From NCBI GenBank assembly GCA_029945195.1, contig GCA_029945195.1_4117.1: 64,000 nucleotides of DNA; one strand, written 5' to 3'. Each line of letters begins with the position of its first letter. The first letter of the stretch is position 1. This stretch comes from a phage. This document shows positions 1 to 16,570 of the stretch, piece by piece. The notes under the pieces are model-generated. The model was not told the origin of the DNA. It made no database searches and saw nothing but the letters and a program-made list of their open reading frames with translations. A program made the translations under genes and the position numbers.

Positions 1-38
1 CCGTATTAAAAAGATCGCAGTACTTGAATAAAAAGTAC

Positions 39-66
39 TTGCAAACTAAGTTTAAACGCGTATAAT
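39..66 (+). promoter_or_regulatory. sigma70-type promoter (TTGCAA-16-TATAAT)
   Basis: -35 TTGCAA 39-44, -10 TATAAT 61-66; AGTACT in -35 flank. Confidence 0.6.
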
Positions 67-78
67 ACTTTATATCAG

Positions 79-97
79 GTGGGGAATAGTTCCCCAC
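79..97 (+). promoter_or_regulatory. 5' leader hairpin GTGGGGAA-TAG-TTCCCCAC
   Basis: perfect 8-bp inverted repeat about 13 nt after -10, upstream of SD AAGGAG 104-109. Confidence 0.6.
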
Positions 98-116
98 TAA
101 AGCAAGGAGTAATAAA

Positions 117-347
117 ATGACCACTATGTATATGATCGAATTGAAAGCCGTAAAAGATACTACCACAAATAAAACTACTTACTTACAGCGGATCTGCGGT
201 GTATGGCAACGTATTAGTAAAGTAAAGTACTATAAATTAACATCATATGCCAATCGTTCGGATTCATTCAGTACTGAAATAAAAGGTAATAAAGTACACC
301 AATACGGCACTTATTATTATTATAACCTGGACGCGATTGCAGTATAA
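117..347 (+). CDS. hypothetical early protein (76 aa)
   Basis: ORF track; SD AAGGAG 7 nt upstream; promoter+hairpin cassette. Confidence 0.6.
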   Translation: MTTMYMIELKAVKDTTTNKTTYLQRICGVWQRISKVKYYKLTSYANRSDSFSTEIKGNKVHQYGTYYYYNLDAIAV

Positions 348-377
348 GTAGTTTACAAATCTTTACAATTGCCAGTA

Positions 378-406
378 TTGACTTATTTTGTCAGTACTGG
401 CATAAT
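378..406 (+). promoter_or_regulatory. promoter TTGACT-17-CATAAT driving short noncoding unit
   Basis: -35 378-383, -10 401-406, CCAGTACTGG palindrome in spacer; conserved motif TAGCCCATAGGGTGCG at 429-444 downstream. Confidence 0.5.
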
Positions 407-521
407 GTATTCATTGGCAGATAAGCCGTAGCCCATAGGGTGCGGAAGTGTATCTATAGAAAAAGTAGTTTAGTACAGTTACAATTGTGCACCCGGTGGG
501 TTAGCTGTTGTCATGGGGTAT

Positions 522-550
522 ATTATACCAGTACTGGATAGTGCTGTCAA
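522..550 (-). promoter_or_regulatory. minus-strand promoter TTGACA-17-TATAAT convergent with 378-406
   Basis: minus-strand -35 at 545-550, -10 at 522-527; minus-strand copy of conserved motif at 488-505. Confidence 0.5.
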
Positions 551-595
551 TACCTTTTTACTATTCAGTACTGAAAACTATTTGATAAAAAGTAC

Positions 596-623
596 TTGCA
601 AACTATGTTTAAAAGCGTATAAT
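596..623 (+). promoter_or_regulatory. sigma70-type promoter (TTGCAA-16-TATAAT)
   Basis: -35 596-601, -10 618-623. Confidence 0.55.
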
Positions 624-630
624 GTTTTAC

Positions 631-705
631 ATCAGGACGGGGAACGAAATAAGTAACTTCCCGTTAAGTAGCCCAGGAGTAAGGCACACGAAAAACTCCC
701 CTGAT
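631..705 (+). ncRNA. conserved ~75-nt structured leader element, copy 1
   Basis: closed by ATCAGG/CCTGAT stem, internal hairpin ACGGGGAA..TTCCCGT; near-identical copy at 9669-9741 with the same flanking promoters. Confidence 0.4.
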
Positions 706-713
706 AAAATAGT

Positions 714-741
714 TTGACAATTGTTTTTAAAAGCGTATAAT
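714..741 (+). promoter_or_regulatory. sigma70-type promoter (TTGACA-16-TATAAT)
   Basis: -35 714-719, -10 736-741. Confidence 0.6.
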
Positions 742-773
742 ACTTACATCAACTACTGAATGAGGGTTACAAA

Positions 774-1385
774 ATGAAAACTATCACTACTACTACTTTC
801 GTTATGGATTTTTCTGAATTGAACGCAGAACAAAAAACGTCAGCTATCGAACTGGTTCGGGAACGTGAAAAAAACTCAAACGACAATTATTTTTCTGAAA
901 GTGAAATTGAATACTATAAAGAAACAGTACTACCGGAATATGGCATTAATGACGCTGAAATACAATTCAGTGGTTTTTGGTCCCAGGGTGACGGTGCATC
1001 AATCAGTACTGACCACGTTGACGCAGTGAAGTTTTTACGCAAGGTTAGAGCGTTAACTAAGTATCGCTCAATCCGTCACCTGCTGAATGAAGATGAATTA
1101 TCTATGAGGGTACAGCGTTCTCAATCCCGCTACTCACACGAAAACACTGTAAGCGGGTACATTGAATCGGGGTACACTGATTTAACAGCAAAACAGGAAG
1201 CGTTAGCCAATGAGCTTGAGGAATTGCTTACTGTTACTATTCGTGAATTATCTCGCAAGTTGTACCGTGATTTAGAGAATGCATATGAGGATCAATTCAC
1301 TACTGAGAACATCACGGCACTGATCGAGGGTAACGAGTATCAATTCAATGTTATTGATGGCGTAGTAGAATCAATCGCATATTAA
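774..1385 (+). CDS. hypothetical protein (203 aa)
   Basis: ORF track; SD GAGGG upstream; promoter 714-741. Confidence 0.65.
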   Translation: MKTITTTTFVMDFSELNAEQKTSAIELVREREKNSNDNYFSESEIEYYKETVLPEYGINDAEIQFSGFWSQGDGASISTDHVDAVKFLRKVRALTKYRSIRHLLNEDELSMRVQRSQSRYSHENTVSGYIESGYTDLTAKQEALANELEELLTVTIRELSRKLYRDLENAYEDQFTTENITALIEGNEYQFNVIDGVVESIAY

Positions 1386-1440
1386 TTTAGTACTGAGATA
1401 ATGGCGGGGAATGGTTCCCGCCTTTACTGAGGATTATCTA

Positions 1441-1647
1441 ATGAGTGATTTAATCGAACGTATCAAAGAGCTTGAAGAAAAAGAATTACAGTTAATCGGA
1501 TTGCGTAATAAAGTTTATTCAGAGCTTGGAGGCTTCATACAGGCTTGGGATAGTGGTGATCCTGATGCTTTACCTGCTAACCGCCAGGCGATGATCAATG
1601 ATGTGAGAAGTGTCTTTGATTATGTTTTAAAAAGTACTGGACACTAA
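1441..1647 (+). CDS. hypothetical protein (68 aa)
   Basis: track ORF 1411-1647 trimmed to ATG 1441: SD GAGGA 1428-1432; upstream in-frame ATG lies in hairpin 1403-1422. Confidence 0.5.
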   Translation: MSDLIERIKELEEKELQLIGLRNKVYSELGGFIQAWDSGDPDALPANRQAMINDVRSVFDYVLKSTGH

Positions 1648-1717
1648 GCAATAAAGGCGTATAATACTTTATATCGAGAGCGGGAATAGTTCCCGCTACT
1701 AATGAGGAATACTACAA

Positions 1718-1882
1718 ATGAATACTTTTACCTTCGCTCAATTGAACGCCCTGGATGTATTGTCTGATGCTTTGCGGGATGCAACTGAAAGCGGTTTATT
1801 TGACAATGTTGACATTCACCCTGATGTAATTAATAATTTTTGTGATGCTATCGCAGAAGTACTGGAAGATCTAAAAAAATAA
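1718..1882 (+). CDS. hypothetical small protein (54 aa, not in track)
   Basis: hand-translated; -10 TATAAT 1660-1665, hairpin 1679-1697, SD GAGGA 1704-1708. Confidence 0.5.
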   Translation: MNTFTFAQLNALDVLSDALRDATESGLFDNVDIHPDVINNFCDAIAEVLEDLKK

Positions 1883-1892
1883 TAGAAAGTAC

Positions 1893-1920
1893 TTGCAATT
1901 AGTTTTTAGTACTGTATAAT
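1893..1920 (+). promoter_or_regulatory. sigma70-type promoter (TTGCAA-16-TATAAT)
   Basis: -35 1893-1898, -10 1915-1920; AGTACTG immediately before -10. Confidence 0.6.
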
Positions 1921-1932
1921 AGTTTACATAGA

Positions 1933-1952
1933 GGGGAGAAATGGTTCTCCCT
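1933..1952 (+). promoter_or_regulatory. 5' leader hairpin GGGAGAA-ATGG-TTCTCCC
   Basis: inverted repeat between -10 and SD. Confidence 0.55.
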
Positions 1953-1970
1953 GGTAATGAGGAAAATAAA

Positions 1971-2192
1971 ATGGCTAATATCACTACTCTTTCTCAACTG
2001 GAAGCACTGGTTAAATCTATGCGGGAACATGCCGACAATATCGGCGTAAAAGATCCAGCCGTTTGCTTCTGCGACGAAATGAATGATGATACACTGGTAA
2101 TAGCAGAAGTACAAGATATTTCTAACTATTCATCGCGTTACACTGGCGGCGTAGCAAATAAAGGTGACTTCTGTTTATACCTTACCAAATAA
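1971..2192 (+). CDS. hypothetical protein (73 aa)
   Basis: track ORF 1941-2192 trimmed to ATG 1971 (SD GAGGA 1959-1963); upstream ATG sits in hairpin loop. Confidence 0.55.
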   Translation: MANITTLSQLEALVKSMREHADNIGVKDPAVCFCDEMNDDTLVIAEVQDISNYSSRYTGGVANKGDFCLYLTK

Positions 2193-2197
2193 CAACG

Positions 2198-2227
2198 CGG
2201 GGAGATAATAACTCCCCGTTACTTTTT
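2198..2227. terminator. rho-independent terminator-like hairpin (possibly bidirectional)
   Basis: CGGGGAG/CTCCCCG stem, then TTACTTTTT; also 3' of the minus-strand short unit. Confidence 0.5.
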
Positions 2228-2298
2228 CAGTACTGAATCATTTAATAGACGGATCTATGCACCCTGTGGGTTAGTGACTGTATCGTCTTTATGTAGTA

Positions 2299-2327
2299 AT
2301 TATGCCAGTACTGGATGCAGTTGTCAA
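2299..2327 (-). promoter_or_regulatory. minus-strand promoter TTGACA-17-CATAAT driving short noncoding unit
   Basis: minus -35 at 2322-2327, -10 at 2299-2304; conserved motif copy (minus) at 2258-2274. Confidence 0.5.
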
Positions 2328-2360
2328 CAATTATTTTTCAAATACTTTTTATTAAAATAC

Positions 2361-2388
2361 TTGCTATTAGTTTTTAAACGCGTATAAT
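2361..2388 (+). promoter_or_regulatory. sigma70-type promoter (TTGCTA-16-TATAAT)
   Basis: -35 2361-2366, -10 2383-2388; hairpin 2398-2416 follows. Confidence 0.55.
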
Positions 2389-2436
2389 GTTTTGCATAGG
2401 GGGAGCGGTTCCCCCTGGTAACTAAGGAATAAGAAA

Positions 2437-2673
2437 ATGCTTGAACAAATCAAATCAACGTCTGCTAATGTAACGGGAACGGTATCACACTTTATTGGTG
2501 ATGAATCGCGGGGCGTTCCCTATTGTGCTGTACATGTAAACACTGAGGGTAACTACTGGTTTACGGTTTACGGTTCATATTCATTTGGACGGCCAGGGCA
2601 TCAAAAAATTCTGGATAAAGTACAACCAACGGGTAAAAATATCACTGCCGAAATGTTTTATAAAAAATCATAA
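2437..2673 (+). CDS. hypothetical protein (78 aa)
   Basis: ORF track; SD AAGGA; promoter+hairpin cassette. Confidence 0.6.
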   Translation: MLEQIKSTSANVTGTVSHFIGDESRGVPYCAVHVNTEGNYWFTVYGSYSFGRPGHQKILDKVQPTGKNITAEMFYKKS

Positions 2674-2757
2674 AGTACTTGCAATTAGTTTTTAGTACTG
2701 TACAATATTTTACATCGCACGGGGGAGCGGTTCCCCCTGGTAACTAAGGATAATCAA

Positions 2758-3057
2758 ATGAAAATTGCAATCATCGCCCTGGCTTTATCTGTTTCCTCTT
2801 TCGCTGTTAACGCGTCGTTAGATGTACCTAGTGAAAAATTCATTCAGTGTACTGTTGCGATGACAGATGAAAGTACTGGCGAGATTGTTTTAAAGGATTT
2901 AGAGATCCAGCCAGAAGCATTTAAAAGCGGCCCGTTCCATGAAGAAGACGAAAAAGGTAGCACGACAATTTATTACGATGTAAGTACTAAGCGTGGATCG
3001 GTCACGGTTATGGATACTGAGAAAGTAACGCACACCGGAGTAATTAACTGTTTATAA
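2758..3057 (+). CDS. small secreted/periplasmic protein (99 aa)
   Basis: N-terminus MKIAIIALALSVSSFAVNAS is signal-peptide-like; SD AAGGA; promoter+hairpin upstream. Confidence 0.6.
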   Translation: MKIAIIALALSVSSFAVNASLDVPSEKFIQCTVAMTDESTGEIVLKDLEIQPEAFKSGPFHEEDEKGSTTIYYDVSTKRGSVTVMDTEKVTHTGVINCL

Positions 3058-3074
3058 TATAGTACTGAATCACT

Positions 3075-3103
3075 AGCCCACCTTAAACAGTGGGCTTTTT
3101 TGT
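3075..3103 (+). terminator. rho-independent terminator
   Basis: AGCCCAC-loop-GTGGGCT then TTTTTTG; exact duplicate at 3810-3837. Confidence 0.7.
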
Positions 3104-3305
3104 TTTTGTATTATCGTAGTACTGCATACTTTAAAAATAGTTTTAAAATAGTAGTTGACATTACCACAAAAAGGCGTAGAATGTATTACATCAAGACGGG
3201 GAGCACTAAGTAGACCGCCAGTAAGTCGAACGAAAAACTGGACACGTCGATAAAACTTTGATACACTAATAAACGTAAACTAAACTTTAATTGAGGATTT
3301 ATAAA

Positions 3306-3788
3306 ATGGCTAATGTAAAATCATTCCTGAAAGCACTGATTTCAAACGATACTGTTATTGCTGCTGAATTGTTGGCTGACCTGGATAACGATACCATGAA
3401 AGCAGTACGCAACAATTTTAACATTGCGTACAGTGAAGCTAAAGAACTGCAAGCCAAAAAGGTAGCAGAACTGGAAGAACAGAAAAAAGCCCGTGAAGCC
3501 GAACTGCAAGCAACAATCGAAAGTATCCAGGCGGCGGTGGCTGGATTGGATCTGGAAGTAGTTGTAGAAATGGCACATAAAGCCCTGGCGGTTAAGTATG
3601 GTGAAGATAAGCCAGAATCTAAACCTAAAAAATGGATTCAAGAACGTGTTACTGTAGTACTTGATAACGGGGAAGAACATATGATTCCTGTACGCGGTAA
3701 CTGCATTGCGGTAGTACTGGACGCTATCAAAGAAAGCGGTATGACTCGCGAGGAATGGATCGAAGCTCATCGCAAAGTTGAAGCATAA
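3306..3788 (+). CDS. hypothetical charged, helix-rich protein (160 aa)
   Basis: track ORF 3291-3788 trimmed to ATG 3306 (SD GAGGA); K/E/A-rich. Confidence 0.55.
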   Translation: MANVKSFLKALISNDTVIAAELLADLDNDTMKAVRNNFNIAYSEAKELQAKKVAELEEQKKAREAELQATIESIQAAVAGLDLEVVVEMAHKALAVKYGEDKPESKPKKWIQERVTVVLDNGEEHMIPVRGNCIAVVLDAIKESGMTREEWIEAHRKVEA

Positions 3789-3809
3789 CAATTAAAGTAC
3801 TGAATCACT

Positions 3810-3837
3810 AGCCCACCTTAAACAGTGGGCTTTTTTG
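3810..3837 (+). terminator. rho-independent terminator
   Basis: same AGCCCACCTTAAACAGTGGGCTTTTTT as 3075-3103. Confidence 0.7.
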
Positions 3838-3855
3838 TGTCTGTAGTATTCCAGT

Positions 3856-3955
3856 CCACCAGCACCGCCTAGAATCGATTCTAACGCATTAAACTGATTA
3901 TCTGATACATCGCCCTAGCTGGTGGCGTTAAGGTCGTTAGAATGCGATTGAGAGC
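3856..3955. repeat. interleaved inverted repeats containing Chi and its complement
   Basis: CCACCAGC 3856-3863 vs GCTGGTGG 3918-3925; ...AATCGATTCTAACGCATT 3874-3890 vs CGTTAGAATGCGATTGAG 3935-3952. Confidence 0.5.
3918..3925 (+). other. Chi site GCTGGTGG
   Basis: exact E. coli Chi octamer, intergenic. Confidence 0.6.
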
Positions 3956-4073
3956 GTTTAAATTATTTTGCAAAAAGTAATAAAAAGTACTTGCACGATT
4001 AAGAGATTAGCGTATAATGTTTTACATCGAGAGGGGGAAACGGTTCTCCTTCCAAATCAAAGGAATCAAAACA

Positions 4074-4301
4074 ATGGCTATTATCATTACTCGCGTATCT
4101 GGTACTACTGGCAACGAACAAGTAGTTGCAGTCATTACGAACAAGGCAGGTGCGGAATTGCAAAATGCAATGAATACCTGGGCCGTTAATGAGTTCGGTC
4201 AGTGGGCAAGTGTAGCATACATTGAAACCTATCAAGTGCCGACCATTAGTTTAACGGATCTTGGTGTGGAACGTATCCTTTGCCTGGATGAATTAAATTA
4301 A
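4074..4301 (+). CDS. hypothetical protein (75 aa)
   Basis: track ORF 4017-4301 trimmed to ATG 4074 (SD AAAGGA); MAII N-terminus shared with 4388 and 7178 genes. Confidence 0.55.
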   Translation: MAIIITRVSGTTGNEQVVAVITNKAGAELQNAMNTWAVNEFGQWASVAYIETYQVPTISLTDLGVERILCLDELN

Positions 4302-4387
4302 AAAAAGTACTTGCAAAGTAAATCGAATAAAGTATAATACATTACATCAAGGGGAGAAATGATTCTCCCCACTACAAGGAAACTAAA

Positions 4388-4600
4388 ATGGCTATCATTA
4401 CTAAAATCAAAGTTAACAAGACTATCGTTAAACTGGCAGAAGTGAAAGAAGGTTATAAAGTATCTTGGTGCGGTATGTATCGGACGTTCGCAGATATAGA
4501 TGATGCGATCAATTATTACAGTGACACGGTTAAAAACTTTGTTCGTGCTGATGTGGTTATGGCAGTGGCAACATATAAAGCAGCGAAAGAAAGTAAGTAA
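4388..4600 (+). CDS. hypothetical protein (70 aa)
   Basis: ORF track; promoter + hairpin 4351-4370 + SD AAGGA. Confidence 0.6.
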   Translation: MAIITKIKVNKTIVKLAEVKEGYKVSWCGMYRTFADIDDAINYYSDTVKNFVRADVVMAVATYKAAKESK

Positions 4601-4691
4601 AAATATTATCACAGTACTATTGACATAGTTTGATAGTACTGGCATAATAGATTTTATCAAGACGACACATATTAATTTAAGGAATACTAAA

Positions 4692-5015
4692 ATGGCTAAA
4701 ACTATCATCAACACCGTTTCCCTGGCTGCAATCCATGCAATCAATGTTGACGGTAAACGTTGGACTGATTCATATGGCAATACTTATCATTCTTGTCATG
4801 TAAGCGTTGAACTGGATAACGGCTTGAATGATCTGGCGGTTGAATCATTTACTTATGGCTATGAGGATGCATATCAACAAACGGCGGTATCACTCTTAAA
4901 GGAATCAGTAGACGGGCTTGATACTGTTGAAACCTCCCTCTATCGTTTGTGCAATGATCTTAATATCCCGTTGCATTGTACTGTACAGAATGTTAAACGC
5001 AAAAAAGATCTTTAA
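4692..5015 (+). CDS. hypothetical protein (107 aa), paralog of 10461-10784
   Basis: shares RWTDSxGNTYHSC..FTYGY..RKKD with 10461 ORF; promoter ATTGACA..CATAAT upstream. Confidence 0.65.
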   Translation: MAKTIINTVSLAAIHAINVDGKRWTDSYGNTYHSCHVSVELDNGLNDLAVESFTYGYEDAYQQTAVSLLKESVDGLDTVETSLYRLCNDLNIPLHCTVQNVKRKKDL

Positions 5016-5095
5016 TTAGCTTTACTTTATGCAGATACTTTGATATAGTGTCTGCATAGGAGAAAGAAATTAAATCAACTTAAGAGGATAGTAAA

Positions 5096-5365
5096 ATGAA
5101 AAATATCAGTACTTTAATCGATGCAGGTACACATGTTCGTCGGTCTATGGTTGCAACCAGTTCTACAAAACAAGTACCAAGCGGTTATCTTGTATTTGTG
5201 CACGATGGAAAACTCCTGGAACGTTCAATCAATTTTGATGTTAAAAACAATTGCCGTTTTATTATCTTTCGCCGTGAACAATATAAAATTGATTTGCCAG
5301 CGAAGCCCATTAGCGGGGCGTACAACGTGCAATCATTGTTTGAGCGTCAACCATACACCTATTGA
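5096..5365 (+). CDS. hypothetical protein (89 aa)
   Basis: ORF track; SD AGAGGA 8 nt upstream. Confidence 0.5.
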   Translation: MKNISTLIDAGTHVRRSMVATSSTKQVPSGYLVFVHDGKLLERSINFDVKNNCRFIIFRREQYKIDLPAKPISGAYNVQSLFERQPYTY

Positions 5366-5416
5366 TCAAATCATCGTCAGTGGTCGATTTAGGCCGCTTA
5401 TATTGGGGATTATACC

Positions 5417-5785
5417 ATGAACGTTAATCAAGTACTGAATGAGATCGAAAGCATCATTAAACCGATGAAGCGTACTGATGCTATGTTAACACCGGAAGAA
5501 TGCCGCCTTTATGAGCGTTACAGCGTCGAACAAGTCCAGGCAATGGCTAGTATCCTTCCGGTTAGTAGTACTGCTAAAGGTGGCCCAGGTTTAACCGTAC
5601 AGGATAAAATCGATCTCCTTAAGCTCAATGGCTATGTAGTTGATGTCGATAAAGAAAAAGTAATGGTATATGATAGTAGTATTGAGCAAGACTATTATAA
5701 CTATTGCATGATTGAAAATGATCCTATTGATTCTATCATTGAAAATATGGTTAACAAAGCATTAAAAGATTTAGATTTAGTTTGA
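5417..5785 (+). CDS. hypothetical protein (122 aa)
   Basis: ORF track. Confidence 0.55.
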   Translation: MNVNQVLNEIESIIKPMKRTDAMLTPEECRLYERYSVEQVQAMASILPVSSTAKGGPGLTVQDKIDLLKLNGYVVDVDKEKVMVYDSSIEQDYYNYCMIENDPIDSIIENMVNKALKDLDLV

Positions 5786-5859
5786 CAGTACTGTAAAAAG
5801 GCGTATAATGTTTTACATAGAGGGGGGAAATGGTTCTCCCCAATAACAGGAGATACAAA

Positions 5860-6012
5860 ATGAAACAATACAACGCTCGGTTTGATGTTACTATCGGTAA
5901 CGGCAAAGGTCAATTCTCTTTCAGTACTCGACGCAGTTATACAGAAAACTTCCTGCGTAATTGTGCACTGACCGCCGCACAAATTAAACATTACTTTCAG
6001 GCTAAAAAATGA
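5860..6012 (+). CDS. hypothetical small protein (50 aa)
   Basis: track ORF 5830-6012 trimmed to ATG 5860 (SD AGGAG); hairpin about 5820-5842 upstream. Confidence 0.5.
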   Translation: MKQYNARFDVTIGNGKGQFSFSTRRSYTENFLRNCALTAAQIKHYFQAKK

Positions 6013-6098
6013 AATCATTAGCTTATTACAGTTCGGCCCTGGTCGGTGCATTGATCGCGGCGTTGTTAGTAACCTATCTATTCTTTATGGTGATTTAA
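6009..6098 (+). CDS. small hydrophobic membrane peptide (29 aa, not in track)
   Basis: hand-translated MKSLAYYSSALVGALIAALLVTYLFFMVI; ATGA overlap with upstream gene. Confidence 0.4.
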   Translation: MKSLAYYSSALVGALIAALLVTYLFFMVI

Positions 6099-6233: not shown

Positions 6234-6237
6234 ATGA

Positions 6238-6314
6238 AAAAAGTGGTTGACTTCGGTCAGCCATTTTGCTATTATATATTCATTGAGAGATAGCTCACTA
6301 GCCCACAGGGTGCA
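6238..6314 (+). repeat. composite intergenic repeat, copy A
   Basis: hairpin 6238-6267 with embedded TTGACT 6247-6252 and TATTAT 6270-6275; conserved motif CTAGCCCACAGGGTGCA 6298-6314. Confidence 0.6.
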
Positions 6315-6368
6315 GGAGTGTATCTATTGTATAATGTTTGAGTACTGAAAACTATTTTTAAAAAGTAC

Positions 6369-6396: not shown

Positions 6397-6447
6397 GTTT
6401 TACATCGAAAGGGGAAACGGTTTCCCCTGGTAATAAGGAAACAAATC

Positions 6448-7907: not shown

Positions 7908-7977
7908 TTGACAAATTATGCCAGTACTGGCATAATACTTACATCAAGACGAGAACGTCACTAACCCATAGGGTGCA
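7908..7977 (+). promoter_or_regulatory. promoter TTGACA-17-CATAAT plus conserved motif CTAACCCATAGGGTGCA
   Basis: -35 7908-7913, -10 7931-7936, motif 7961-7977. Confidence 0.5.
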
Positions 7978-8234
7978 CAAATGTAACTGTATAATATTGA
8001 TCAAAAAATGATCTGATCAATACTTGTTCAATTTGCGTAAAGTAGTATAATTCTATGCAGTTGGTTAGACGAAAGGTTATGATTAGTAGTGGAAGTGTAT
8101 AAAAATTTTCATGGTGTGGTGTTCCGCACATATGGGGATGAATATGTCGTGTCGTATGGATTGGAAAAAGTAAAAACAAGTAATATACTTGTCGCGTTAC
8201 AGTACTATAGTAATTTTATAATGAGGTTAAAATA

Positions 8235-9497: not shown

Positions 9498-9567
9498 AAA
9501 GGGATTGACTCCGGTCAGTCCCTTTGCTATTATATATTCATTGAAACAATCTAGCCCACAGGGTGCA
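9498..9567 (+). repeat. composite intergenic repeat, copy B
   Basis: hairpin 9498-9525 with embedded TTGACT 9505-9510 and TATTAT 9528-9533; motif CTAGCCCACAGGGTGCA 9551-9567. Confidence 0.6.
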
Positions 9568-9585
9568 TAAATGTATCTATTGTTT

Positions 9586-9593
9586 GCTGGTGG
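9586..9593 (+). other. Chi site GCTGGTGG
   Basis: exact octamer, intergenic. Confidence 0.6.
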
Positions 9594-10373: not shown

Positions 10374-10460
10374 GTATTGACAAAGTATCTTAGTACTGTA
10401 TAATAGTTTACATCAAGGCAGGGGAATGGTTCCCCTCCTAACTAAAAGAGAGAAATTAAA

Positions 10461-10784
10461 ATGGCTATGATCCTTACCCAGAAAGTAGAAATGAAAATTG
10501 TAACTTCCTTTGACATTAAAGTTAATCGGTGGACTGATAGCCACGGCAATACTTACCACTCATGCTACGTGTCTGCATTGATTGGTGACCGCTGGGAAGA
10601 CCTGGGACACGAAACATTTACTTACGGTTACGGCACACAAGGCGAGTACACTGGTTTGGAAATCATTAAGGAAACTGTAATAGGTTTCAACCCGAAAGAG
10701 AAAGTACTACACAGAATTGAGAAAGAGATCAACAAAGAAATTACAGTTCGATACTACGATGTAAAACGTAAGAAAGACATGTAA
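10461..10784 (+). CDS. hypothetical protein (107 aa), paralog of 4692-5015
   Basis: shared RWTDSHGNTYHSC / FTYGY / KRKKD motifs; hairpin 10420-10436. Confidence 0.65.
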   Translation: MAMILTQKVEMKIVTSFDIKVNRWTDSHGNTYHSCYVSALIGDRWEDLGHETFTYGYGTQGEYTGLEIIKETVIGFNPKEKVLHRIEKEINKEITVRYYDVKRKKDM

Positions 10785-10883
10785 TAGAATCCATTTAAAG
10801 TACTATTTGACATTGCCCAGATAGTACTTTATAATAGACTCTAACTTGTAGTACTAATTAACTTAACTAATAGGATGTACACC

Positions 10884-11279
10884 ATGATTACTAAATTCTT
10901 CGCTACCCGTGAACAAGCTCGCATCGTTGCCCGTGAAGAAGGTGAAACATTTAAAGACATGGGCAAAGATGCACCGAAAGGACAACGCTGGGCGGTACAG
11001 TTCAAAGAGATCTCTGATATTGTGAATTCACCTGAGCCTGTACTTACAGCAGCAGAACTAAAGCAAGCTCAAGAACTGGCTGAAGTACTGAACGCTCAAG
11101 ATGACTTTTTGAAAGGTTCTGATATTGAAGTTACAGTTAACGCAAATGCATGGACTCACGCGGATCACCTGGCAAACCTTAAGCGTCCAAGTGAACTGAT
11201 TCGTAACCAGAAAGAGATCCGTCATGACCGTAAAGGAAACCGTGTAACAGTATACAGTAAACGCCGCCAGGTTATCTAA
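10884..11279 (+). CDS. hypothetical protein (131 aa)
   Basis: track ORF 10875-11279; second ATG 10884 better spaced from AGGA. Confidence 0.55.
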   Translation: MITKFFATREQARIVAREEGETFKDMGKDAPKGQRWAVQFKEISDIVNSPEPVLTAAELKQAQELAEVLNAQDDFLKGSDIEVTVNANAWTHADHLANLKRPSELIRNQKEIRHDRKGNRVTVYSKRRQVI

Positions 11280-11302
11280 TAACTTTGCAGTACTAACAAC
11301 AC

Positions 11303-11327
11303 GGCGGGAACTATTCCCGCCTTTTTT
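11303..11327 (+). terminator. rho-independent terminator
   Basis: GGCGGGAA-CTA-TTCCCGCC then TTTTTT. Confidence 0.7.
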
Positions 11328-11341
11328 ATAGGATAAACAAA

Positions 11342-11596
11342 ATGATTAAGGTTCAACTATCAAACGATAATGTATTACGGGTACACTATAAAGCCCCACA
11401 GAGAATCATCACAAAGGCCGTACAGCTTGCTAATGAGTTTATTAATGGTAGTCTATTGCCTAGGAAGTTAAGCAACGGGAAACTACGTGTAATCGACGTA
11501 GACACTAACAATAGAATAGTGATCGAGAGTACTGGAAAAATTAATCTATATGAACACCAACAATACAATAAAAAAATAAAACTAATATCACGTTGA
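11342..11596 (+). CDS. hypothetical protein (84 aa)
   Basis: ORF track; SD AGGA. Confidence 0.55.
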   Translation: MIKVQLSNDNVLRVHYKAPQRIITKAVQLANEFINGSLLPRKLSNGKLRVIDVDTNNRIVIESTGKINLYEHQQYNKKIKLISR

Positions 11597-11621
11597 CAGT
11601 ACTCAAATGTTTTAGTATTAT
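11593..11621 (+). promoter_or_regulatory. promoter TTGACA-17-TATTAT
   Basis: TTGACAGTACTCAAATGTTTTAGTA block duplicated at 11874-11902. Confidence 0.5.
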
Positions 11622-11654
11622 GTATCTATACCAACACAGAGAGAGAGAAACAAA

Positions 11655-11873
11655 ATGAAATTATCTAAAATCGAAAAGAAAACTATTGATGAAGCAGTGA
11701 AGCACGGTTATACCTTTCGTAATGATTCACACTTCACTAGTTTTCAACAGGGAAACCGTACCATCAAAAAACTCATTGATAAAGGTTTACTCACTAAGGT
11801 TGATAACGGGAACGGTGTAGAATATCAACCGACAGAAGACGCATTATCACTAAAGAAATATTCTATTATCTAA
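11655..11873 (+). CDS. hypothetical protein (72 aa)
   Basis: ORF track. Confidence 0.55.
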   Translation: MKLSKIEKKTIDEAVKHGYTFRNDSHFTSFQQGNRTIKKLIDKGLLTKVDNGNGVEYQPTEDALSLKKYSII

Positions 11874-11902
11874 TTGACAGTACTCAAATGTTTTAGTACT
11901 AT
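11874..11902 (+). promoter_or_regulatory. promoter TTGACA-17-TACTAT (duplicate of 11593-11621)
   Basis: near-identical 30-nt block. Confidence 0.5.
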
Positions 11903-11930
11903 GTACGCATACCAACACGGGGAAAACAAA

Positions 11931-12173
11931 ATGATTACTTTAGAAAAACGTATCAAAGAGACTACAACGCTGGTGGAACTGTTAACCGTTCTTAAATGCC
12001 GGGTAACTCCATTCAGTACACCGGACTTTATCAACATGGTGGACGTTAACGGTCGATATCGTATTGCGGTCGAACAAGGTACGGCAAAAGTATTCAGTAC
12101 TAAAAATACGCGTGAAGTATTCCACGCAGTTCAAGTAAAAAAAGTAGTTGCCATTGATAGTAAAGTACTGTAA
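11931..12173 (+). CDS. hypothetical protein (80 aa)
   Basis: track ORF 11874-12173 trimmed to ATG 11931 (SD GGGGAAAA). Confidence 0.5.
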   Translation: MITLEKRIKETTTLVELLTVLKCRVTPFSTPDFINMVDVNGRYRIAVEQGTAKVFSTKNTREVFHAVQVKKVVAIDSKVL

Positions 12174-12204
12174 TATAGTTTCATTAACTCAAGGAGTCAA
12201 CACA

Positions 12205-12789
12205 ATGCGTAACTATACTAAATTCATCCGTTCACTTCATGCAATGGAAACCAACAAAGAGATCCTTTCAGCTTGTCGGTTAGCTGGACTGGAGATCGTC
12301 GGTGCGGGTTCTTCCCGTATTGTATTCGCTTTAAATGATCGGTTAGTGATTAAGGTCGCGAATTGTGATGCGGGTGTAGAACAAAATGAAACTGAATGTA
12401 AGGTATGGAATTTTTTAGATTATGACCGTCCGCACCTTAAACAGTACTTTGCTAAAGTGCATATGCATTTATGCGATCCTGATAATCTGTTTATTGTTAT
12501 GGATCGTTTGAGTACTGCAAGCAAAGGCAGTGTAAAGCATGTAAACGCGTGCAATGAGTTAAAGTACAATATTAAACGTAATACGGTAGAACGCCATCAC
12601 CATTTCGCTGATGCTCTCAATCACGTTGATGATACATTATCCACACTAACGATAAGAGATATCAGAAAACAGAATATCGGCCAGGATCGCAACGGCTTGA
12701 TTAAAGTACTTGATTACGGTTTAACCCGCAATATCTGGAATCAGTACTATAAAAAACGTGATGTTAACGCGATAACTATAACACGATAA
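12205..12789 (+). CDS. minimal eukaryotic-like protein kinase fold (194 aa)
   Basis: track ORF trimmed to ATG 12205 (SD AAGGAG); Gly loop VGAGSSRIVF, LVIKV lysine, hinge FIVMDRL, catalytic loop IRDIRKQNIG, DYG; C-lobe subdomains VIII-XI absent. Confidence 0.55.
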   Translation: MRNYTKFIRSLHAMETNKEILSACRLAGLEIVGAGSSRIVFALNDRLVIKVANCDAGVEQNETECKVWNFLDYDRPHLKQYFAKVHMHLCDPDNLFIVMDRLSTASKGSVKHVNACNELKYNIKRNTVERHHHFADALNHVDDTLSTLTIRDIRKQNIGQDRNGLIKVLDYGLTRNIWNQYYKKRDVNAITITR

Positions 12790-12800
12790 AAAAGATTAAA

Positions 12801-12875
12801 AAAGGGATTGACTCCAGTCAGTCCCTTTGCTATTATATATTCATTGAGAGATAACTCACTGACCCATAGGGTGCG
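12801..12875 (+). repeat. composite intergenic repeat, copy C
   Basis: hairpin 12801-12828 with embedded TTGACT 12808-12813 and TATTAT 12831-12836; motif CTGACCCATAGGGTGCG 12859-12875. Confidence 0.6.
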
Positions 12876-12930
12876 GAAGTGTATCTATTATATAAGTATT
12901 CAGTACTGAAAACTATTTTATAAAAAGTAC

Positions 12931-12958
12931 TTGCAAACTATCTCAATGAGCGTATAAT
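12931..12958 (+). promoter_or_regulatory. sigma70-type promoter (TTGCAA-16-TATAAT)
   Basis: -35 12931-12936, -10 12953-12958. Confidence 0.6.
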
Positions 12959-13013
12959 GTTTTATATCGAGAGGGGGAAATGGTTCTCCCTGGTACTAAA
13001 AGGAATCAAGACG

Positions 13014-13235
13014 ATGACTACTATGACATGCGTTCACGCTTCAAATCTTCTGAATGATGCAGCATTTAAAGCAGGTGAAGAATATCAATGCTATCGGGAT
13101 GAAAATAAAAAAGTTTTCGTCGTTGATGCTAACGGTTTCCATATTGAATTACAATCCGGCTTCACTGGTTTAAATGGTAAATCAGTATGGGGCGTTAATG
13201 ATGATAATGGTCTTTATCACTTTATCCGTAATTAA
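13014..13235 (+). CDS. hypothetical protein (73 aa)
   Basis: track ORF 12957-13235 trimmed to ATG 13014 (SD AAAGGA). Confidence 0.55.
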   Translation: MTTMTCVHASNLLNDAAFKAGEEYQCYRDENKKVFVVDANGFHIELQSGFTGLNGKSVWGVNDDNGLYHFIRN

Positions 13236-13318
13236 GTATTGACAAAGTATATCAGTACTGTATAATAGTTTACATCAAGGGGAGAATAGTTCTCCCCACA
13301 ATAAAAGGAAACAAAATT

Positions 13319-13591
13319 ATGTCCAGCTACTCCGCTACTATGATTATTAAAGATATGAACGGTAATCCTACTTCTGCTGGTGGATCATTTGGTAACATTA
13401 ATTTAGATGGGCGGTTATCAATTGAATCAGCCATCAATGCCGCGAAAGAAGTTTTTAAGAATGAATGTACTGTAAGCAAACTGGATTATATGGGCTTCGC
13501 TATCGAGAAAACTAATCGTTTTGTGGACTACAAAAAACCACTGATGATCGATACTAACCTGAAAGCTAACGAAGTGGAATACTTATTATGA
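13319..13591 (+). CDS. hypothetical protein (90 aa)
   Basis: ORF track; hairpin 13279-13297; contains in-frame Chi 13376-13383. Confidence 0.6.
   Translation: MSSYSATMIIKDMNGNPTSAGGSFGNINLDGRLSIESAINAAKEVFKNECTVSKLDYMGFAIEKTNRFVDYKKPLMIDTNLKANEVEYLL
13376..13383 (+). other. Chi site GCTGGTGG (inside CDS)
   Basis: exact octamer. Confidence 0.55.
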
Positions 13592-13779
13592 CAGTTGAAG
13601 AAGTTAAAAAAGTACTGGCAGTACTACGCTATCATAATCATTGCAAGGTGAAGAATGATCCTGATTATGTTGATTCATCCCTGGAGGAAGACACCTTAAA
13701 CGCGATAAGCTATATGCAAACATTAGCAAAGCGTATGACCGAAAAGAATAGGCCGGACTATATCGGAAATAAAATTTAA
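13588..13779 (+). CDS. hypothetical protein (63 aa)
   Basis: ORF track; ATGA overlap with upstream gene. Confidence 0.5.
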   Translation: MTVEEVKKVLAVLRYHNHCKVKNDPDYVDSSLEEDTLNAISYMQTLAKRMTEKNRPDYIGNKI

Positions 13780-13867
13780 AAAGTACTTGCATTGTAGTTA
13801 GATTAACGTATAATGTTTTATATCGAGAGGGGGGAAATGGTTTCCCCTCAAGTCCAGGAGATACACC

Positions 13868-14131
13868 ATGAACACTATCGAAATCACTATCAATGCACAC
13901 GTATACGACAACGTAGTACTGCAAACTACTATGACCGCTAATGATACCAGTACTTTGCGGAATATCGTTATTAGTTCAGTATGTGCCGCTATCGGTGATG
14001 TTGCCCTGGAAAATGCAAAACACGTCAACGATGCCTTTACGATGTGCAAACGTGATAACTCAAAACATATCATCTGCGAAGGTTACGGCGGTGTAGAATA
14101 CAATGTTTATATGAAAAAAGTACTTGCATAA
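13868..14131 (+). CDS. hypothetical protein (87 aa)
   Basis: ORF track; SD AGGAG; hairpin about 13825-13847. Confidence 0.6.
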   Translation: MNTIEITINAHVYDNVVLQTTMTANDTSTLRNIVISSVCAAIGDVALENAKHVNDAFTMCKRDNSKHIICEGYGGVEYNVYMKKVLA

Positions 14132-14199
14132 TAACTAAAACAAAGTATAATGTTTTGCATAGGGGGAGATATCCTCCCCCACTAATAAGGAGTACTAAA

Positions 14200-14424
14200 A
14201 TGGCTAACTTTGATGAACTGATGCGGGAAGTAGCTACCCTGGCAGAAGAGAAGAAATCATTTGATTCTATCTATAACACCGCTTACAGTGATTCAGTACT
14301 GGCATGTACTCAGGATCAAAAAGATGAACTGATCGCCACCTATCATGAAGCATGGAAGTATTACCGCCAATGGGAGAAAGAAGAAAGCGAGTCTACCATC
14401 AACGGCATCAATAATCTAATCTAA
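14200..14424 (+). CDS. hypothetical protein (74 aa)
   Basis: track ORF 14155-14424 trimmed to ATG 14200 (SD AAGGAG). Confidence 0.55.
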   Translation: MANFDELMREVATLAEEKKSFDSIYNTAYSDSVLACTQDQKDELIATYHEAWKYYRQWEKEESESTINGINNLI

Positions 14425-14499
14425 AGTTTTATTTCAGTACTATTGACATAGCTTGATAGTACTGATGTAATAACTTTACTAACTACAAGGGGAAACATA

Positions 14500-14757
14500 A
14501 TGGAACAGTTCACACAATATCGGGTAAATCCTCAAGCTATGGCCTACGTAGAAGACCATAAAACATTACCAGTACAGACACCAATCAAAGGCCGTATCTA
14601 TCGTGCTATGCAGTGGAATAACGCCTATAATGGCTATAAAGCGGTATCCGCTGCAATGTACTTAGGGGATGGCGAATGGTTTGATCCAAATAATCCTGGT
14701 GCACTCGATAGTACTGAACAAATGACATGGGCCGACTATATCGAAGATATCTCATAA
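14500..14757 (+). CDS. hypothetical protein (85 aa)
   Basis: ORF track. Confidence 0.55.
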   Translation: MEQFTQYRVNPQAMAYVEDHKTLPVQTPIKGRIYRAMQWNNAYNGYKAVSAAMYLGDGEWFDPNNPGALDSTEQMTWADYIEDIS

Positions 14758-14845
14758 AAACTATTTGACAGTACTACAAGATAATGTATAATGTTTTACA
14801 TAGAGCGGGGGAATAGTTCTCCCGCACCTTTAGGAGTAAAACATT

Positions 14846-15046
14846 ATGTCAATCGCTAACGAATTGGTTGCAGTACTGAATGAAGCAAAAGCCAACTGCA
14901 TCGATGTACAGATCAAAGAGCTTGGCAATGGCTTGATCGGCTGTACTTGTTCCGTGCAAACGGCTACCGATTATCGGGAAGTGGAATCACTCGAATCACT
15001 GGTACGGTATATTAAAATCCTGGTAGAAGATTGGAGAATCATCTAA
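14846..15046 (+). CDS. hypothetical protein (66 aa)
   Basis: ORF track; SD AGGAG. Confidence 0.55.
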   Translation: MSIANELVAVLNEAKANCIDVQIKELGNGLIGCTCSVQTATDYREVESLESLVRYIKILVEDWRII

Positions 15047-15061
15047 CAAAAAAGAATAAAA

Positions 15062-15132
15062 AAAAGGGATTGACTCCGGTCAGTCCCTTTGCTATTATAT
15101 ACGCATAGACAAAAATTAGCCCACAGGGTGCA
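15062..15132 (+). repeat. composite intergenic repeat, copy D
   Basis: hairpin with embedded TTGACT 15070-15075 and TATTAT 15093-15098; motif TAGCCCACAGGGTGCA 15117-15132. Confidence 0.6.
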
Positions 15133-15175
15133 GAGAAGTATCTATAAGATAGTTAATAACGGTGAGTAACTATCT

Positions 15176-15183
15176 GCTGGTGG
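15176..15183 (+). other. Chi site GCTGGTGG
   Basis: exact octamer, intergenic. Confidence 0.6.
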
Positions 15184-15303
15184 ATGTAATGCCAGTACTC
15201 AAAACTATTTCAAAAAAAGTATTGACAAAGTATATCAGTACTGCAATAATGTATCTCGTAGGGCGGCAATGGTGCGACGGCCCACAAAGTTAGGAGATTC
15301 AAA

Positions 15304-15630
15304 ATGAGTACTTCAATCGCTATCGTTAAAGCTTTCATCCGTACCAATTTCGACCGCATTACTGTTGATGGTAATGATCGGGAAGTAGAATACTCTTTCA
15401 TCGTTGCACAAACCGCAAACGGTGCACGCTATATCTTAAACGATAGTGAAGCTAACCACTACTTCTATAATAAGGGATTACATTATATCCCTAGCGAAGT
15501 AGTCTACACTAAGATGAATAAGCTAGTAGACAAGATTAACGCAAAGGGTACTATAGATTTACAGTACTGGACCGAAACCGATCCAGAATACGGATCACAT
15601 CGTTACCTGAATCCAGGAATTAAAATGTAA
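15304..15630 (+). CDS. hypothetical protein (108 aa)
   Basis: ORF track; SD AGGAG. Confidence 0.6.
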   Translation: MSTSIAIVKAFIRTNFDRITVDGNDREVEYSFIVAQTANGARYILNDSEANHYFYNKGLHYIPSEVVYTKMNKLVDKINAKGTIDLQYWTETDPEYGSHRYLNPGIKM

Positions 15631-15719
15631 AAAGTACTTGCATTGTACTTAGAATCAAGTATAATGTTTTACATAGAGAGGGGGAAATGGTTCTCCCTCC
15701 TAAATTAAGGAGTTTTATC

Positions 15720-16121
15720 ATGACCTTCTCAATCACTTCCTTCGCTGACGTTTTAGTACTGGCTCGGACTTTTGGTAAAGATGCACTGGAGTACGCTGTA
15801 AGTAATGGCACTCTCCAACCGGAACAATGCCGCATCATTGGAAACTGCAAACGTTGGGCGGTATCCAATACTATTGCACTAGAAAACTTCAACGATGGTA
15901 ACAATGAGTATTCAGTTGATGCAGTATTCGAAGCCGTTGATCTTGGCGGTATCTATAACACTAACCTAAATGATGTGCGTATCGTTCGCACGGGGTTCGG
16001 TGCTTATGATGTATCTATCCGTGAAGCTATGAACACCGGATACATTAGTAAGGACTTACTTGCTCACATCATGCAGCTATGGACGGAACGTAACGAAGCA
16101 CGCACTATCTTAGGGCTGTAA
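15720..16121 (+). CDS. hypothetical protein (133 aa)
   Basis: track ORF 15687-16121 trimmed to ATG 15720 (SD AAGGAG). Confidence 0.6.
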   Translation: MTFSITSFADVLVLARTFGKDALEYAVSNGTLQPEQCRIIGNCKRWAVSNTIALENFNDGNNEYSVDAVFEAVDLGGIYNTNLNDVRIVRTGFGAYDVSIREAMNTGYISKDLLAHIMQLWTERNEARTILGL

Positions 16122-16189
16122 GCATTACACATCACCAAACATCATAGGCCGCTCTCTAGCGGCCTTAACTATATCAGGAGGGCATACAT

Positions 16190-16399
16190 ATGTTCTATAC
16201 AGTATACAGCGTTCTAGGTACTATTGCTGGCGTACATGATAACGTCAGTGATGCTATGCGTACAGTACTGCAACAGGTTCCACTAAAGCCTAAGACCATT
16301 AAGCAGATGACAGCACGACTAACCAGGGCGACCGCTGGCGTGGAAGTATGGCAGGACTACGGGGATACACAGATAATCGTTAGCGTAACGAAGGATTAA
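16190..16399 (+). CDS. hypothetical protein (69 aa)
   Basis: ORF track; SD AGGAGG; 5' hairpin 16146-16165. Confidence 0.55.
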   Translation: MFYTVYSVLGTIAGVHDNVSDAMRTVLQQVPLKPKTIKQMTARLTRATAGVEVWQDYGDTQIIVSVTKD

Positions 16400-16570
16400 T
16401 GCGTAAAGGGATCTAGTACTGATTCAGAAAAAAGTCAAGGCGTTTTTAAAATAATGCGTTAAAAAAATGCATAGGTAATCCCTTGACTTTTTTAAAATAA
16501 AAGGGATTGGACTATGGCAAAATGCGTAGGGGGCTAAAGGGCGGGTAACCTTAGCGACTTCGATAAAGGG
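16398..16570 (+). repeat. iteron-like direct repeats (AATGCGT x3, TAAAGGG x3-4)
   Basis: TAAAGGG at 16404, 16535, 16564 plus AAAAGGG at 16499; AATGCGT at about 16399, 16454, 16521. Confidence 0.45.
16434..16493 (+). terminator. terminator-like long hairpin
   Basis: GTCAAGG 16434-16440 / CCTTGAC 16481-16487 then TTTTTT; large loop. Confidence 0.35.

Follow-up and report, generated by a model that had tools for sequence, protein, structure and literature searches.

The 64,000-nt stretch of phage DNA analysed here (contig GCA_029945195.1_4117.1, hereafter the window) belongs to a jumbo coliphage of the 121Q/PBECO4 type (genus Asteriusvirus), with 90-97% identity to Salmonella phage SD-6_S16, PBECO4, and 121Q, and it raises the question of why a single palindromic hexamer, AGTACT, is so abundant in its DNA and what kind of molecule reads it. 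The original prediction, made from this stretch alone, had placed the excess at positions 1-16400 and had suggested that the hexamer serves as an operator for a dimeric regulator of most early promoters, or as the target of a DNA modification or restriction-avoidance system. The window was compared with the genome of 121Q (348,532 bp), the relative analysed in full, with samples of 24-50 kb from each of the other relatives, and with a single 50-kb piece of Escherichia coli K-12 as the host contrast. The reading that we put forward, tentatively and at a little less than an even chance, is that AGTACT, mostly in the contexts CAGTACTG or AAGTACTT, is a GTAC-centred palindromic site that would be read on duplex DNA by a symmetric protein, predicted to be specific to this group and most likely encoded by the phages themselves.

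Abundance of AGTACT in the window, in related phages, and in the host

AGTACT is the most over-represented hexamer of the window (11-fold), with 237 copies against 17.4 +/- 4.0 in 100 dinucleotide-preserving shuffles, the largest of which contained 27. The count of about eight copies in the first 600 nt was accurate (positions 19, 34, 226, 270, 393, 530, 567, and 591, with 0.2 expected). The excess is not limited to positions 1-16400, as had been proposed; it spans the entire window with the exception of two islands, at 16421-21057 and 24530-32105. Outside the window, where a return to the expected frequency had been named as counting against the prediction, AGTACT is likewise the top hexamer of 121Q, with 903 copies against 118 expected (7.65-fold). 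Each 5-kb bin of that genome is enriched, including late and structural genes of both strands, and the density peaks in the early-promoter block that matches positions 1-16400 of the window. The two longest AGTACT-free stretches of 121Q, at 7.6 and 4.1 kb, correspond to the two islands, and the next longest is 2.1 kb.

The same trait, with AGTACT first or strongly enriched among hexamers, extends to eight further relatives that were sampled, whose hosts range from E. coli to Xanthomonas. In the samples with counts in Table 1, AGTACT ranks first in all except those of the more distant Pseudomonas phage PA5oct, in which it is depleted, and Klebsiella phage K64-1, for which the ranking is spoiled by runs of N in the record. 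The excess is thus a trait of the phage clade and not of the host group, which argues against a reader specific to enterobacteria. The E. coli K-12 sample contains three copies in 50 kb (0.06 per kb) versus 2.6-6.3 per kb in phage, so that the hexamer is 40-100 times denser in phage than in this one piece of host DNA and tells phage DNA from host DNA.

Restriction avoidance, as originally offered, runs in the wrong direction. Twenty-six of the 64 hexamer palindromes are almost eliminated from 121Q, with 3 copies in all versus 634 expected, while AGTACT, a ScaI-type site, alone departs toward excess; phages that lack protection would be expected to avoid ScaI-type targets, and here the site is enriched to the degree given above. 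The purging of palindromes containing G and C is extreme: 27 hexamer palindromes are missing from the window altogether, and no GCGC occurs in the 348 kb of 121Q.

Placement of AGTACT in early promoters

The first 16.4 kb of the window hold a series of strong, near-consensus sigma-70-type promoters; after each of them come a hairpin, a Shine-Dalgarno sequence, and a small open reading frame (ORF). As had been predicted, AGTACT occupies fixed positions within them: 28 of the 33 strongest promoters carry it at one of three core positions. Thirteen sites lie at offset -27 from the start of the -10 hexamer, abutting the -35 element upstream (AAGTAC-TTGCAA), another 13 lie at -7/-8, abutting the -10 element (AGTACTG-TATAAT), and four lie at -17/-18, just after the -35 element (TTGACAGTACT). 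In five promoters the two flanking sites occur together, at a distance of 20 bp. The contexts quoted in the original prediction are all present: AAGTACTTGCAA (7 copies), AGTACTGTATAAT (7), CCAGTACTGGCATAAT (1, at 7921), and TTCAGTACTGAA (5). In early promoters, paired sites separated by about two turns of the helix lie on either side of the spacer and extend over the upstream edge of both the -35 and the -10 element. The promoter spacing of 20-24 bp is the only preferred spacing of AGTACT in the genome, and a search for helical periodicity of the sites gave nothing beyond it. Offsets -27/-28 and -7/-8 recur in phages of four host genera (Escherichia, Klebsiella, Salmonella, and Serratia), and promoters of the Xanthomonas phage show the outer halves, AGTAC(C)TTGCAA ... 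(G)GTACTtTATAAT.

This layout, on one face of the helix and at the edges of both elements contacted by RNA polymerase, resembles that of an operator. If a predicted phage protein binds these sites as a symmetric reader, its occupancy would exclude sigma-70 RNA polymerase and shut off early promoters on every copy of the genome, and the many intragenic sites would raise the amount of this protein held on phage DNA. The proposal of an operator for a dimeric regulator holds up in part: the site appears to be a symmetric one in duplex DNA, with palindromic flanks and one-sided variants equal on both strands, and its promoter positions are conserved across genera. A plain early-promoter operator is too narrow, since about two thirds of the copies are intragenic, late and structural genes carry them, and the trait is clade-wide.

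Several other features accompany these promoters. A conserved G-rich hairpin of the GGGGAATAGTTCCCC type lies downstream of almost every early promoter, within about 15-20 nt of the -10 hexamer (e.g., 81-95, 1412-1426, and 1681-1695), with the Shine-Dalgarno sequence and start codon directly after it; some of these hairpins, which include a T-run, resemble terminators for the gene before them. Downstream of a second class of promoters (TTGACT-17-TATTAT), a conserved agcccacagggtgc element takes the place of the hairpin, Shine-Dalgarno sequence, and ORF. The element is also visible in the loci of K64-1, 7t3, and BF and has no match in Rfam; these elements may constitute a small-RNA family. For the window as a whole, neither Rfam nor tRNA scans returned matches.

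Level of selection and conservation of individual sites

Nearly all ORFs of the window (146 of 151) are on the plus strand. AGTACT occurs 162 times within ORFs, at 3.05 per kb, and 75 times between them, at 6.9 per kb. The intragenic copies use all three codon frames (69, 39, and 54), and AGTACT is realised in 40-55% of the amino-acid contexts able to encode it. When synonymous codons were shuffled within each gene of 121Q, the sense strands retained 207 +/- 9 copies, compared to 733 observed (3.5-fold, z about 56). A codon-usage artefact is therefore rejected. In 121Q the density is 2.4 per kb in plus-strand genes and 2.2 per kb in minus-strand genes, and it is doubled in intergenic DNA. The one-sided variants AGTACA (1.26-fold) and TGTACT (1.25-fold) are equally and mildly enriched after the codon control; the raw excess of AGTACA over TGTACT reverses with gene orientation, which marks it as a coding effect, and vanishes after the control. 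A preference for the sense strand, as expected of an RNA motif, is rejected on the same grounds.

The sequences flanking the hexamer are themselves symmetric. With its preferred neighbours, AGTACT extends to the 8-bp palindrome CAGTACTG, of which the window has 53 exact copies; C occupies position -1 in 43% of sites and G position +1 in 50%, and G is the rarest base at -1 (10%). Taken together, the use of three frames, the codon shuffles, the strand symmetry, and the palindromic flanks suggest a symmetric reader of duplex DNA and not an RNA motif or a codon artefact, and selection on AGTACT acts at the level of duplex DNA. A bias from very-short-patch-type repair is unlikely, since its deamination products AGTATT and AATACT are undepleted.

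Individual sites are also conserved above background. In the stretch where the window and 121Q are most diverged (89% identity), 45 of 51 AGTACT sites are intact, versus 60% of random hexamer windows. Between 121Q and Klebsiella phage RaK2, whose syntenic core genes are 73% identical, 25 of 51 sites are at the same position, compared to 23-43% for other frequent hexamers, and the RaK2 DNA aligned to these genes contains 80 copies. Individual sites are thus partly constrained, but it is mainly the density that is kept, with copies turning over. Selection keeps that density genome-wide, at 7 to 20 times excess.

A proposed symmetric DNA reader compared with known systems

Several known systems resemble the proposed reader and its sites. 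The sites of YefM (TGTACA) and Phd (8 bp with a GTAC core) are paired palindromes that are bound by a small dimer, overlap the -10 element, and repress transcription (PMC1802561). AGTACT is likewise a short, GTAC-centred palindrome that is paired and overlaps the core promoter, and the phage also encodes a YoeB/YafQ-like protein with a conserved partner gene. YefM and Phd are the DNA-binding partners of YoeB and Doc, and their binding to paired GTAC-core palindromes makes the presence of this RelE-like gene suggestive. The phage sites differ in their outer bases (AGTACT versus TGTACA), in their spacing (about 20 bp versus 12-13 bp), and in their number (about 900 per genome versus one operator), and no Phd or YefM homologue was found in the phage, either by sequence among the ORFs of 121Q and the window or by the fold of the RelE partner. 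The resemblance is best treated as a lead, not as membership.

The RelE/ParE-superfamily protein is the product of an early gene and is confined to this jumbo-phage group (70 records), with PA5oct absent from the tblastn matches listed for it. It has invariant His, Tyr, Arg, and Lys residues. In its AlphaFold2 model (predicted local distance difference test score 89), the top Foldseek matches are YoeB, YafQ, HigB, and ParE2, all of them weak (E 0.08-0.5, template modelling score 0.4-0.47). The protein is a candidate sequence-specific RNase. The gene and its conserved neighbour are adjacent in phages of four host genera (Escherichia, Salmonella, Serratia, and Xanthomonas); structure comparison of the neighbour gave no recognisable fold and no match to YefM or Phd.

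TF1 of phage SPO1 is an abundant phage DNA-binding protein that prefers sites in early promoters and inhibits early transcription. The protein proposed here would similarly bind phage DNA globally, at sites overlapping early promoters. TF1 recognises hydroxymethyluracil DNA and bendable sites, whereas here the target is a defined hexamer, and no HU-like protein was identified in the phage. DNA uptake sequences, Chi, and KOPS are likewise short words that occur far above chance genome-wide, in any frame of a gene, through selection on their density, and they serve a machine that tells own from foreign DNA or acts often along the DNA. AGTACT shares with them its excess over composition, its use of any frame, and its turnover of copies. 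These cellular words are non-palindromic and have known readers, and Chi and KOPS are strand-polar, whereas AGTACT has equal density in both gene orientations, with polar variants in the two islands only.

Several points weigh against a dedicated DNA reader. A Pfam scan of 150 ORFs of the window found no DNA-binding domain that would explain AGTACT, and profile and phmmer searches for Phd/YefM homologues among all ORFs of 121Q and the window, using reference sequences entered by hand, gave only noise. If the reader bound stoichiometrically, each copy of the genome would require enough of it for about 900 sites. The positional regularity in promoters is partly inherited, as these are duplicated paralogous cassettes. 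The contrast between phage and host is based on one small 50-kb host sample, and the binding, repression, and timing ascribed to the putative reader are all inferred from DNA sequence.

An ACT-free zone in the second island

The second island is distinguished by the complete lack of a trinucleotide. Its plus strand contains no ACT in 7,509 nt, against about 142 expected, and the AGTACT copies at 24390 and 24524 are the sole ACTs between 23698 and 32035. A gap of this kind would be expected about 10^-56 times, compared to about 10^-7 for the next most extreme trinucleotide gap in 121Q, and the zone is the only one of its kind in that 348-kb genome (161804-169313). Codon choice does not account for it, with 41.8 +/- 4.7 ACTs at codon junctions after synonymous shuffling (minimum 28 in 200 shuffles) versus none observed. 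The reverse complement, AGT, occurs at normal frequency, which indicates that the constraint is strand-specific. The zone also retains UACG and is rich in ACA, indicating that the constraint is strictly N-ACU. On these grounds, a UACG/UACU specificity of the MazF-SEA/PemK type is rejected, as UACG is kept, and so are the ACA specificity of MazF and the ACY specificity of ChpBK, as the zone is ACA-rich.

In place of AGTACT, the zone carries AGTACA, with 38 copies against about 3 expected, 2.6-fold over the codon-shuffle control. The function of the hexamer therefore survives a change in one of the outer bases, a tolerance common among dimeric DNA binders, and is separable from whatever forbids ACT. 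The genes of the zone are paralogues of flanking, ACT-containing genes and share with them a [DE][DE]x[FYW]FQ motif. The islands are not foreign DNA; this idea was rejected on the basis of these paralogues and of a tetranucleotide composition near that of 121Q, like that of neighbouring blocks. The zone is kept in phages Ecwhy_1, CMSTMSU, and JNE01, in which the orthologous protein is 55%, 45%, and 28% identical, respectively, and a reduced form occurs in Salmonella phage 7t3.

Transcript immunity to an endoribonuclease with trinucleotide specificity is, in our analysis, the best precedent for the zone. Endoribonucleases specific for three nucleotides spare transcripts that do not contain their trinucleotide, and ACA-less RNAs thus escape MazF (PMC5408214). 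The zone is similar in that a trinucleotide is wholly gone from the sense strand of whole genes, beyond the effect of codon choice. The table of RNases in the same review contains no strictly ACU-specific enzyme (PMC5408214), and MazF/PemK enzymes that cut U^ACU exist (PMC10864209). MqsR with GCU and RegB of phage T4 with GGAG can be named as further precedents beside the zone. RegB is an early phage RNase with a RelE-like fold. We know of no natural multi-gene block of 7.5 kb that is free of a trinucleotide.

These observations could be joined into one phage programme, new to the literature, which as a whole we consider possible but doubtful. An early endoribonuclease, the candidate being the RelE/YoeB-like protein encoded at 11342-11596, would cut ACU and destroy host and early phage messages, while the operon of about 19 genes, recoded so as to lack ACU, would stay expressed; a separate phage protein would read the GTAC palindrome on DNA and would mark and silence phage DNA. 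In this programme, the sign of such a separate DNA reader is that the ACT-free operon retains AGTACA. It should be noted that the RelE-like gene is also present in genera without the zone in the sampled region.

The first island, which has the same coding strand as the ACT-free zone, partly mirrors it. Its 10 GTACT words are all TGTACT, and AGT is depleted (60 versus 100). The pattern is seen again in relatives, in the first 5 kb of the samples from Ecwhy_1 and CMSTMSU (L012 and L013) and at 26-28 kb of the sample from 7t3 (L016), with AGT down by a third to a half. The RNase model leaves this mirror-image bias unexplained, and a strand-polar DNA process could explain it.

Other features of the zone and its surroundings were also noted. 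TGCTT is enriched within it (17 versus 4.3), mostly as ATGCTTA or TGCTTT, words that resemble the T4 MotA box, and TCT is consistently depleted to 0.23-0.58 of its flank frequency in four phages. PHROG families allowed a function to be assigned to none of the zone's proteins. The region from about 24169 to 50000 encodes a large paralogous family of 100-210-aa proteins with the [DE][DE]x[FYW]FQ motif, for which PHROGs also give no function; CAGTAC forms part of the coding sequence of the motif in its FQY version.

Alternative explanations for the AGTACT excess

Five other explanations were weighed against the proposed DNA reader. In the first, which we regard as unlikely, AGTACT would be the target of a phage DNA methyltransferase, and the methylation state, differing between fully methylated injected DNA and newly replicated DNA, would tune early promoters and protect the ScaI-type sites. 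The window encodes a predicted Dam-family N6-adenine methyltransferase, a candidate for this role, with homologues in relatives, among them Serratia phage BF and a jumbo phage of Xanthomonas. A C5 methyltransferase (gp91) is present in 121Q as well. The DNA of RaK2 has been reported to be methylated (PMC3622015). Symmetric recognition of AGTACT is as expected of type II methyltransferases, and a genome that purges 26 palindromes yet carries 900 ScaI-type sites would need protection wherever such enzymes occur. Methylation alone, however, does not account for sites in 7- to 20-fold excess, nor for their density being selected within genes. Characterised members of this Dam family act on GATC, which in 121Q is merely at 0.57-fold. 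The Dam-family gene is followed by a cytidylyltransferase-like (nucleotidyltransferase) gene (together 56642-57693), and the same order is found in Serratia phage BF (L017 31476-32237).

The second explanation moves the site to RNA: AGUACU, which contains UACU/ACU, would be preferentially cleaved or bound by a sequence-specific phage endoribonuclease that turns over early and host mRNAs. The group-specific RelE/ParE-superfamily early gene with its invariant residues and nearest folds YoeB, YafQ, and HigB, the conserved gene block without ACU in its mRNA, the existence of U^ACU-cutting enzymes (PMC10864209), and the peak of AGTACT density in the early region are consistent with this idea. We nevertheless consider it improbable, as AGUACA and UGUACU are equally enriched after codon control, with no sense-strand preference, the flanks are palindromic, and many copies lie at conserved positions in promoter DNA, upstream of the start sites. 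In addition, ACU already occurs about 20 times per kb, so that extra AGUACU would add little sensitivity, and the ACU-free zone still selects for AGUACA.

No better placed, in our view a long shot, is the third explanation, that AGTACT is a preferred site of a T4-like replication enzyme, such as a primase or type II topoisomerase, and serves either strand wherever forks run. Such a reader would be needed in catalytic amounts only, and the motif is genome-wide, orientation-independent, and selected for density. The mirror-image bias of the islands (TGTACT on the top strand in island 1, AGTACA in island 2) could reflect a strand-polar DNA process of this kind. However, the conserved placement at the flanks of the -35 and -10 elements is left unexplained, and PA5oct has an annotated T4-like primase yet lacks the motif. 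Known primase sites are trinucleotides and do not need palindromy, which also speaks against a primase.

The fourth possibility is that AGTACT has no dedicated reader and that its excess is a by-product of duplicated promoter cassettes and of codon, amino-acid, or mutational (repair) bias. The early promoters are clearly paralogous cassettes, and the asymmetry between AGTACA and TGTACT follows the coding strand and is gone after codon control. This explanation is highly unlikely and is largely refuted by the shuffling and conservation tests described above: copies exceed synonymous shuffles 3.5-fold and use three frames, AGTATT and AATACT are undepleted, and sites are conserved above background. 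Moreover, genera that have diverged to saturation with substitutions still share the trait, and the islands lack AGTACT though, by tetranucleotide composition, they are no further from the rest of 121Q than the early and mid blocks beside them.

Finally, a host protein such as the nucleoid-occlusion factor SlmA, which binds as a dimer to a palindromic consensus (GTGAGTACTCAC) with the same central AGTACT (PMC3020112) and through which the phage might manipulate the host cell, is scarcely tenable as the reader, and canonical SlmA binding is refuted: SlmA needs G1, T2, and a purine at position 3 (PMC3020112), whereas these GT(R) flanks are absent or disfavoured in the phage, which prefers C at position 3 (43%) and has G there least often (10%), the full site GT[AG]AG[CT][AG]CT[CT]AC has no match in the window or 121Q, half-sites are below expectation, and the motif is stronger still in the Xanthomonas phage. 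LexA, considered for the likeness of its half-site to CAGTA/TACTG, is also rejected, with CTGT-N8-ACAG occurring zero times in the window and once in 121Q.

Features of the window and samples of related phages

Table 1. Positions of the features discussed in the window, and occurrence of AGTACT and of the ACT-free zone in related phages
Feature or phage	Position or sample	Strand	Details
Early-promoter block	1..16420		Highest AGTACT density: 104 copies vs 5.3 expected, 6.3 per kb; ~33-40 strong sigma-70-type promoters
TTGACT...CATAAT promoter	378..406	+	Palindrome gtCAGTACTGg directly upstream of -10; TG = extended -10
Model promoter with both sites	1888..1920	+	AGTACT (1888-1893)-TTGCAA, spacer, AGTACT (1908-1913) G-TATAAT; 20 bp centre to centre
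Second two-site promoter	2674..2706	+	AGTACT at 2674 and 2694
agcccacagggtgc-type promoters	about 6247-6330, 9505-9590, 12808-12890, 15070-15150		Variants at 378-470 and 7908-7990
Conserved neighbour of RelE-like gene	10875..11279	+	
RelE/ParE-superfamily protein, early gene	11342..11596	+	84 aa; PF24732, 40.4 bits vs cut-off 24.4
Island 1	16421..21057	+	Array of ~70-aa paralogues, no AGTAC
Stretch between islands	21058..24529		17 AGTACT
ACT-free zone (island 2)	24530..32035	+	7,509 nt, about 19 genes
Long operons of small genes	32106..64000		116 AGTACT, mostly coding; 106 of 207 codable amino-acid contexts used
Dam-family N6-adenine DNA methyltransferase (predicted)	56642..57163	+	PF05869
ACT-free zone in Ecwhy_1	sampled piece L012, 7235-15072		7,839 nt
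ACT-free zone in CMSTMSU	sampled piece L013, 6653-15112		8,461 nt
ACT-free zone in JNE01	sampled piece L014, 9728-14173		4,447 nt
ACT-free zone in Salmonella phage 7t3	sampled piece L016, about 30000-32381		Reduced form
RaK2 (Klebsiella)	core replication genes, 50 kb		AGTACT 114 vs 16.6; top hexamer
GAP32 (Cronobacter)	core genes, 50 kb		AGTACT 114 vs 16.8; top hexamer
CBB (Pectobacterium)	core genes, 50 kb		AGTACT 112 vs 16.8; top hexamer
K64-1 (Klebsiella)	early region		AGTACT 15.6-fold; hexamer ranking spoiled by N runs in record
7t3 (Salmonella)	early region		AGTACT 13.8-fold; top hexamer
BF (Serratia)	early region		AGTACT 17.2-fold; top hexamer
XaC1 (Xanthomonas)	early region		AGTACT 21.6-fold; top hexamer
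PA5oct (Pseudomonas), more distant	50 kb, 100001-150000		AGTACT 3 vs 16.6; depleted

Implications for jumbo phages of the 121Q/RaK2 group

A short, over-represented palindrome that doubles as an operator is a known kind of feature. What is new, as far as we can tell, is the scale of AGTACT, the fact that a viral clade conserves it throughout, and the link between it and an ACT-free operon; in full-text searches of literature outside subscription, and in the papers on RaK2, CBB, and Sharanji, neither the hexamer nor the ACT-free block was mentioned.

Jumbo phages of the 121Q/RaK2 group are under development for therapy, and most of their approximately 600 genes and their regulation are obscure. 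That selection holds AGTACT at about 900 copies in each genome, in genera whose hosts are E. coli, Salmonella, Klebsiella, Cronobacter, Pectobacterium, Serratia, and Xanthomonas, suggests that these phages share a conserved protein which recognises their DNA and probably sets the timing of early transcription. The experimental handles are an 8-bp bait, sensitivity to ScaI, and two defined promoter positions. If the ACT-free operon reflects immunity to a phage RNase, it would represent a new mode of host shut-off and temporal control, and a natural counterpart of the engineered ACA-less/MazF system for single-protein production. Should the single programme outlined above prove true, viruses would gain their first example of a natural "RNase-proof" operon of several genes, and this operon would be coupled to a motif, present throughout the genome, by which the phage marks its own DNA.

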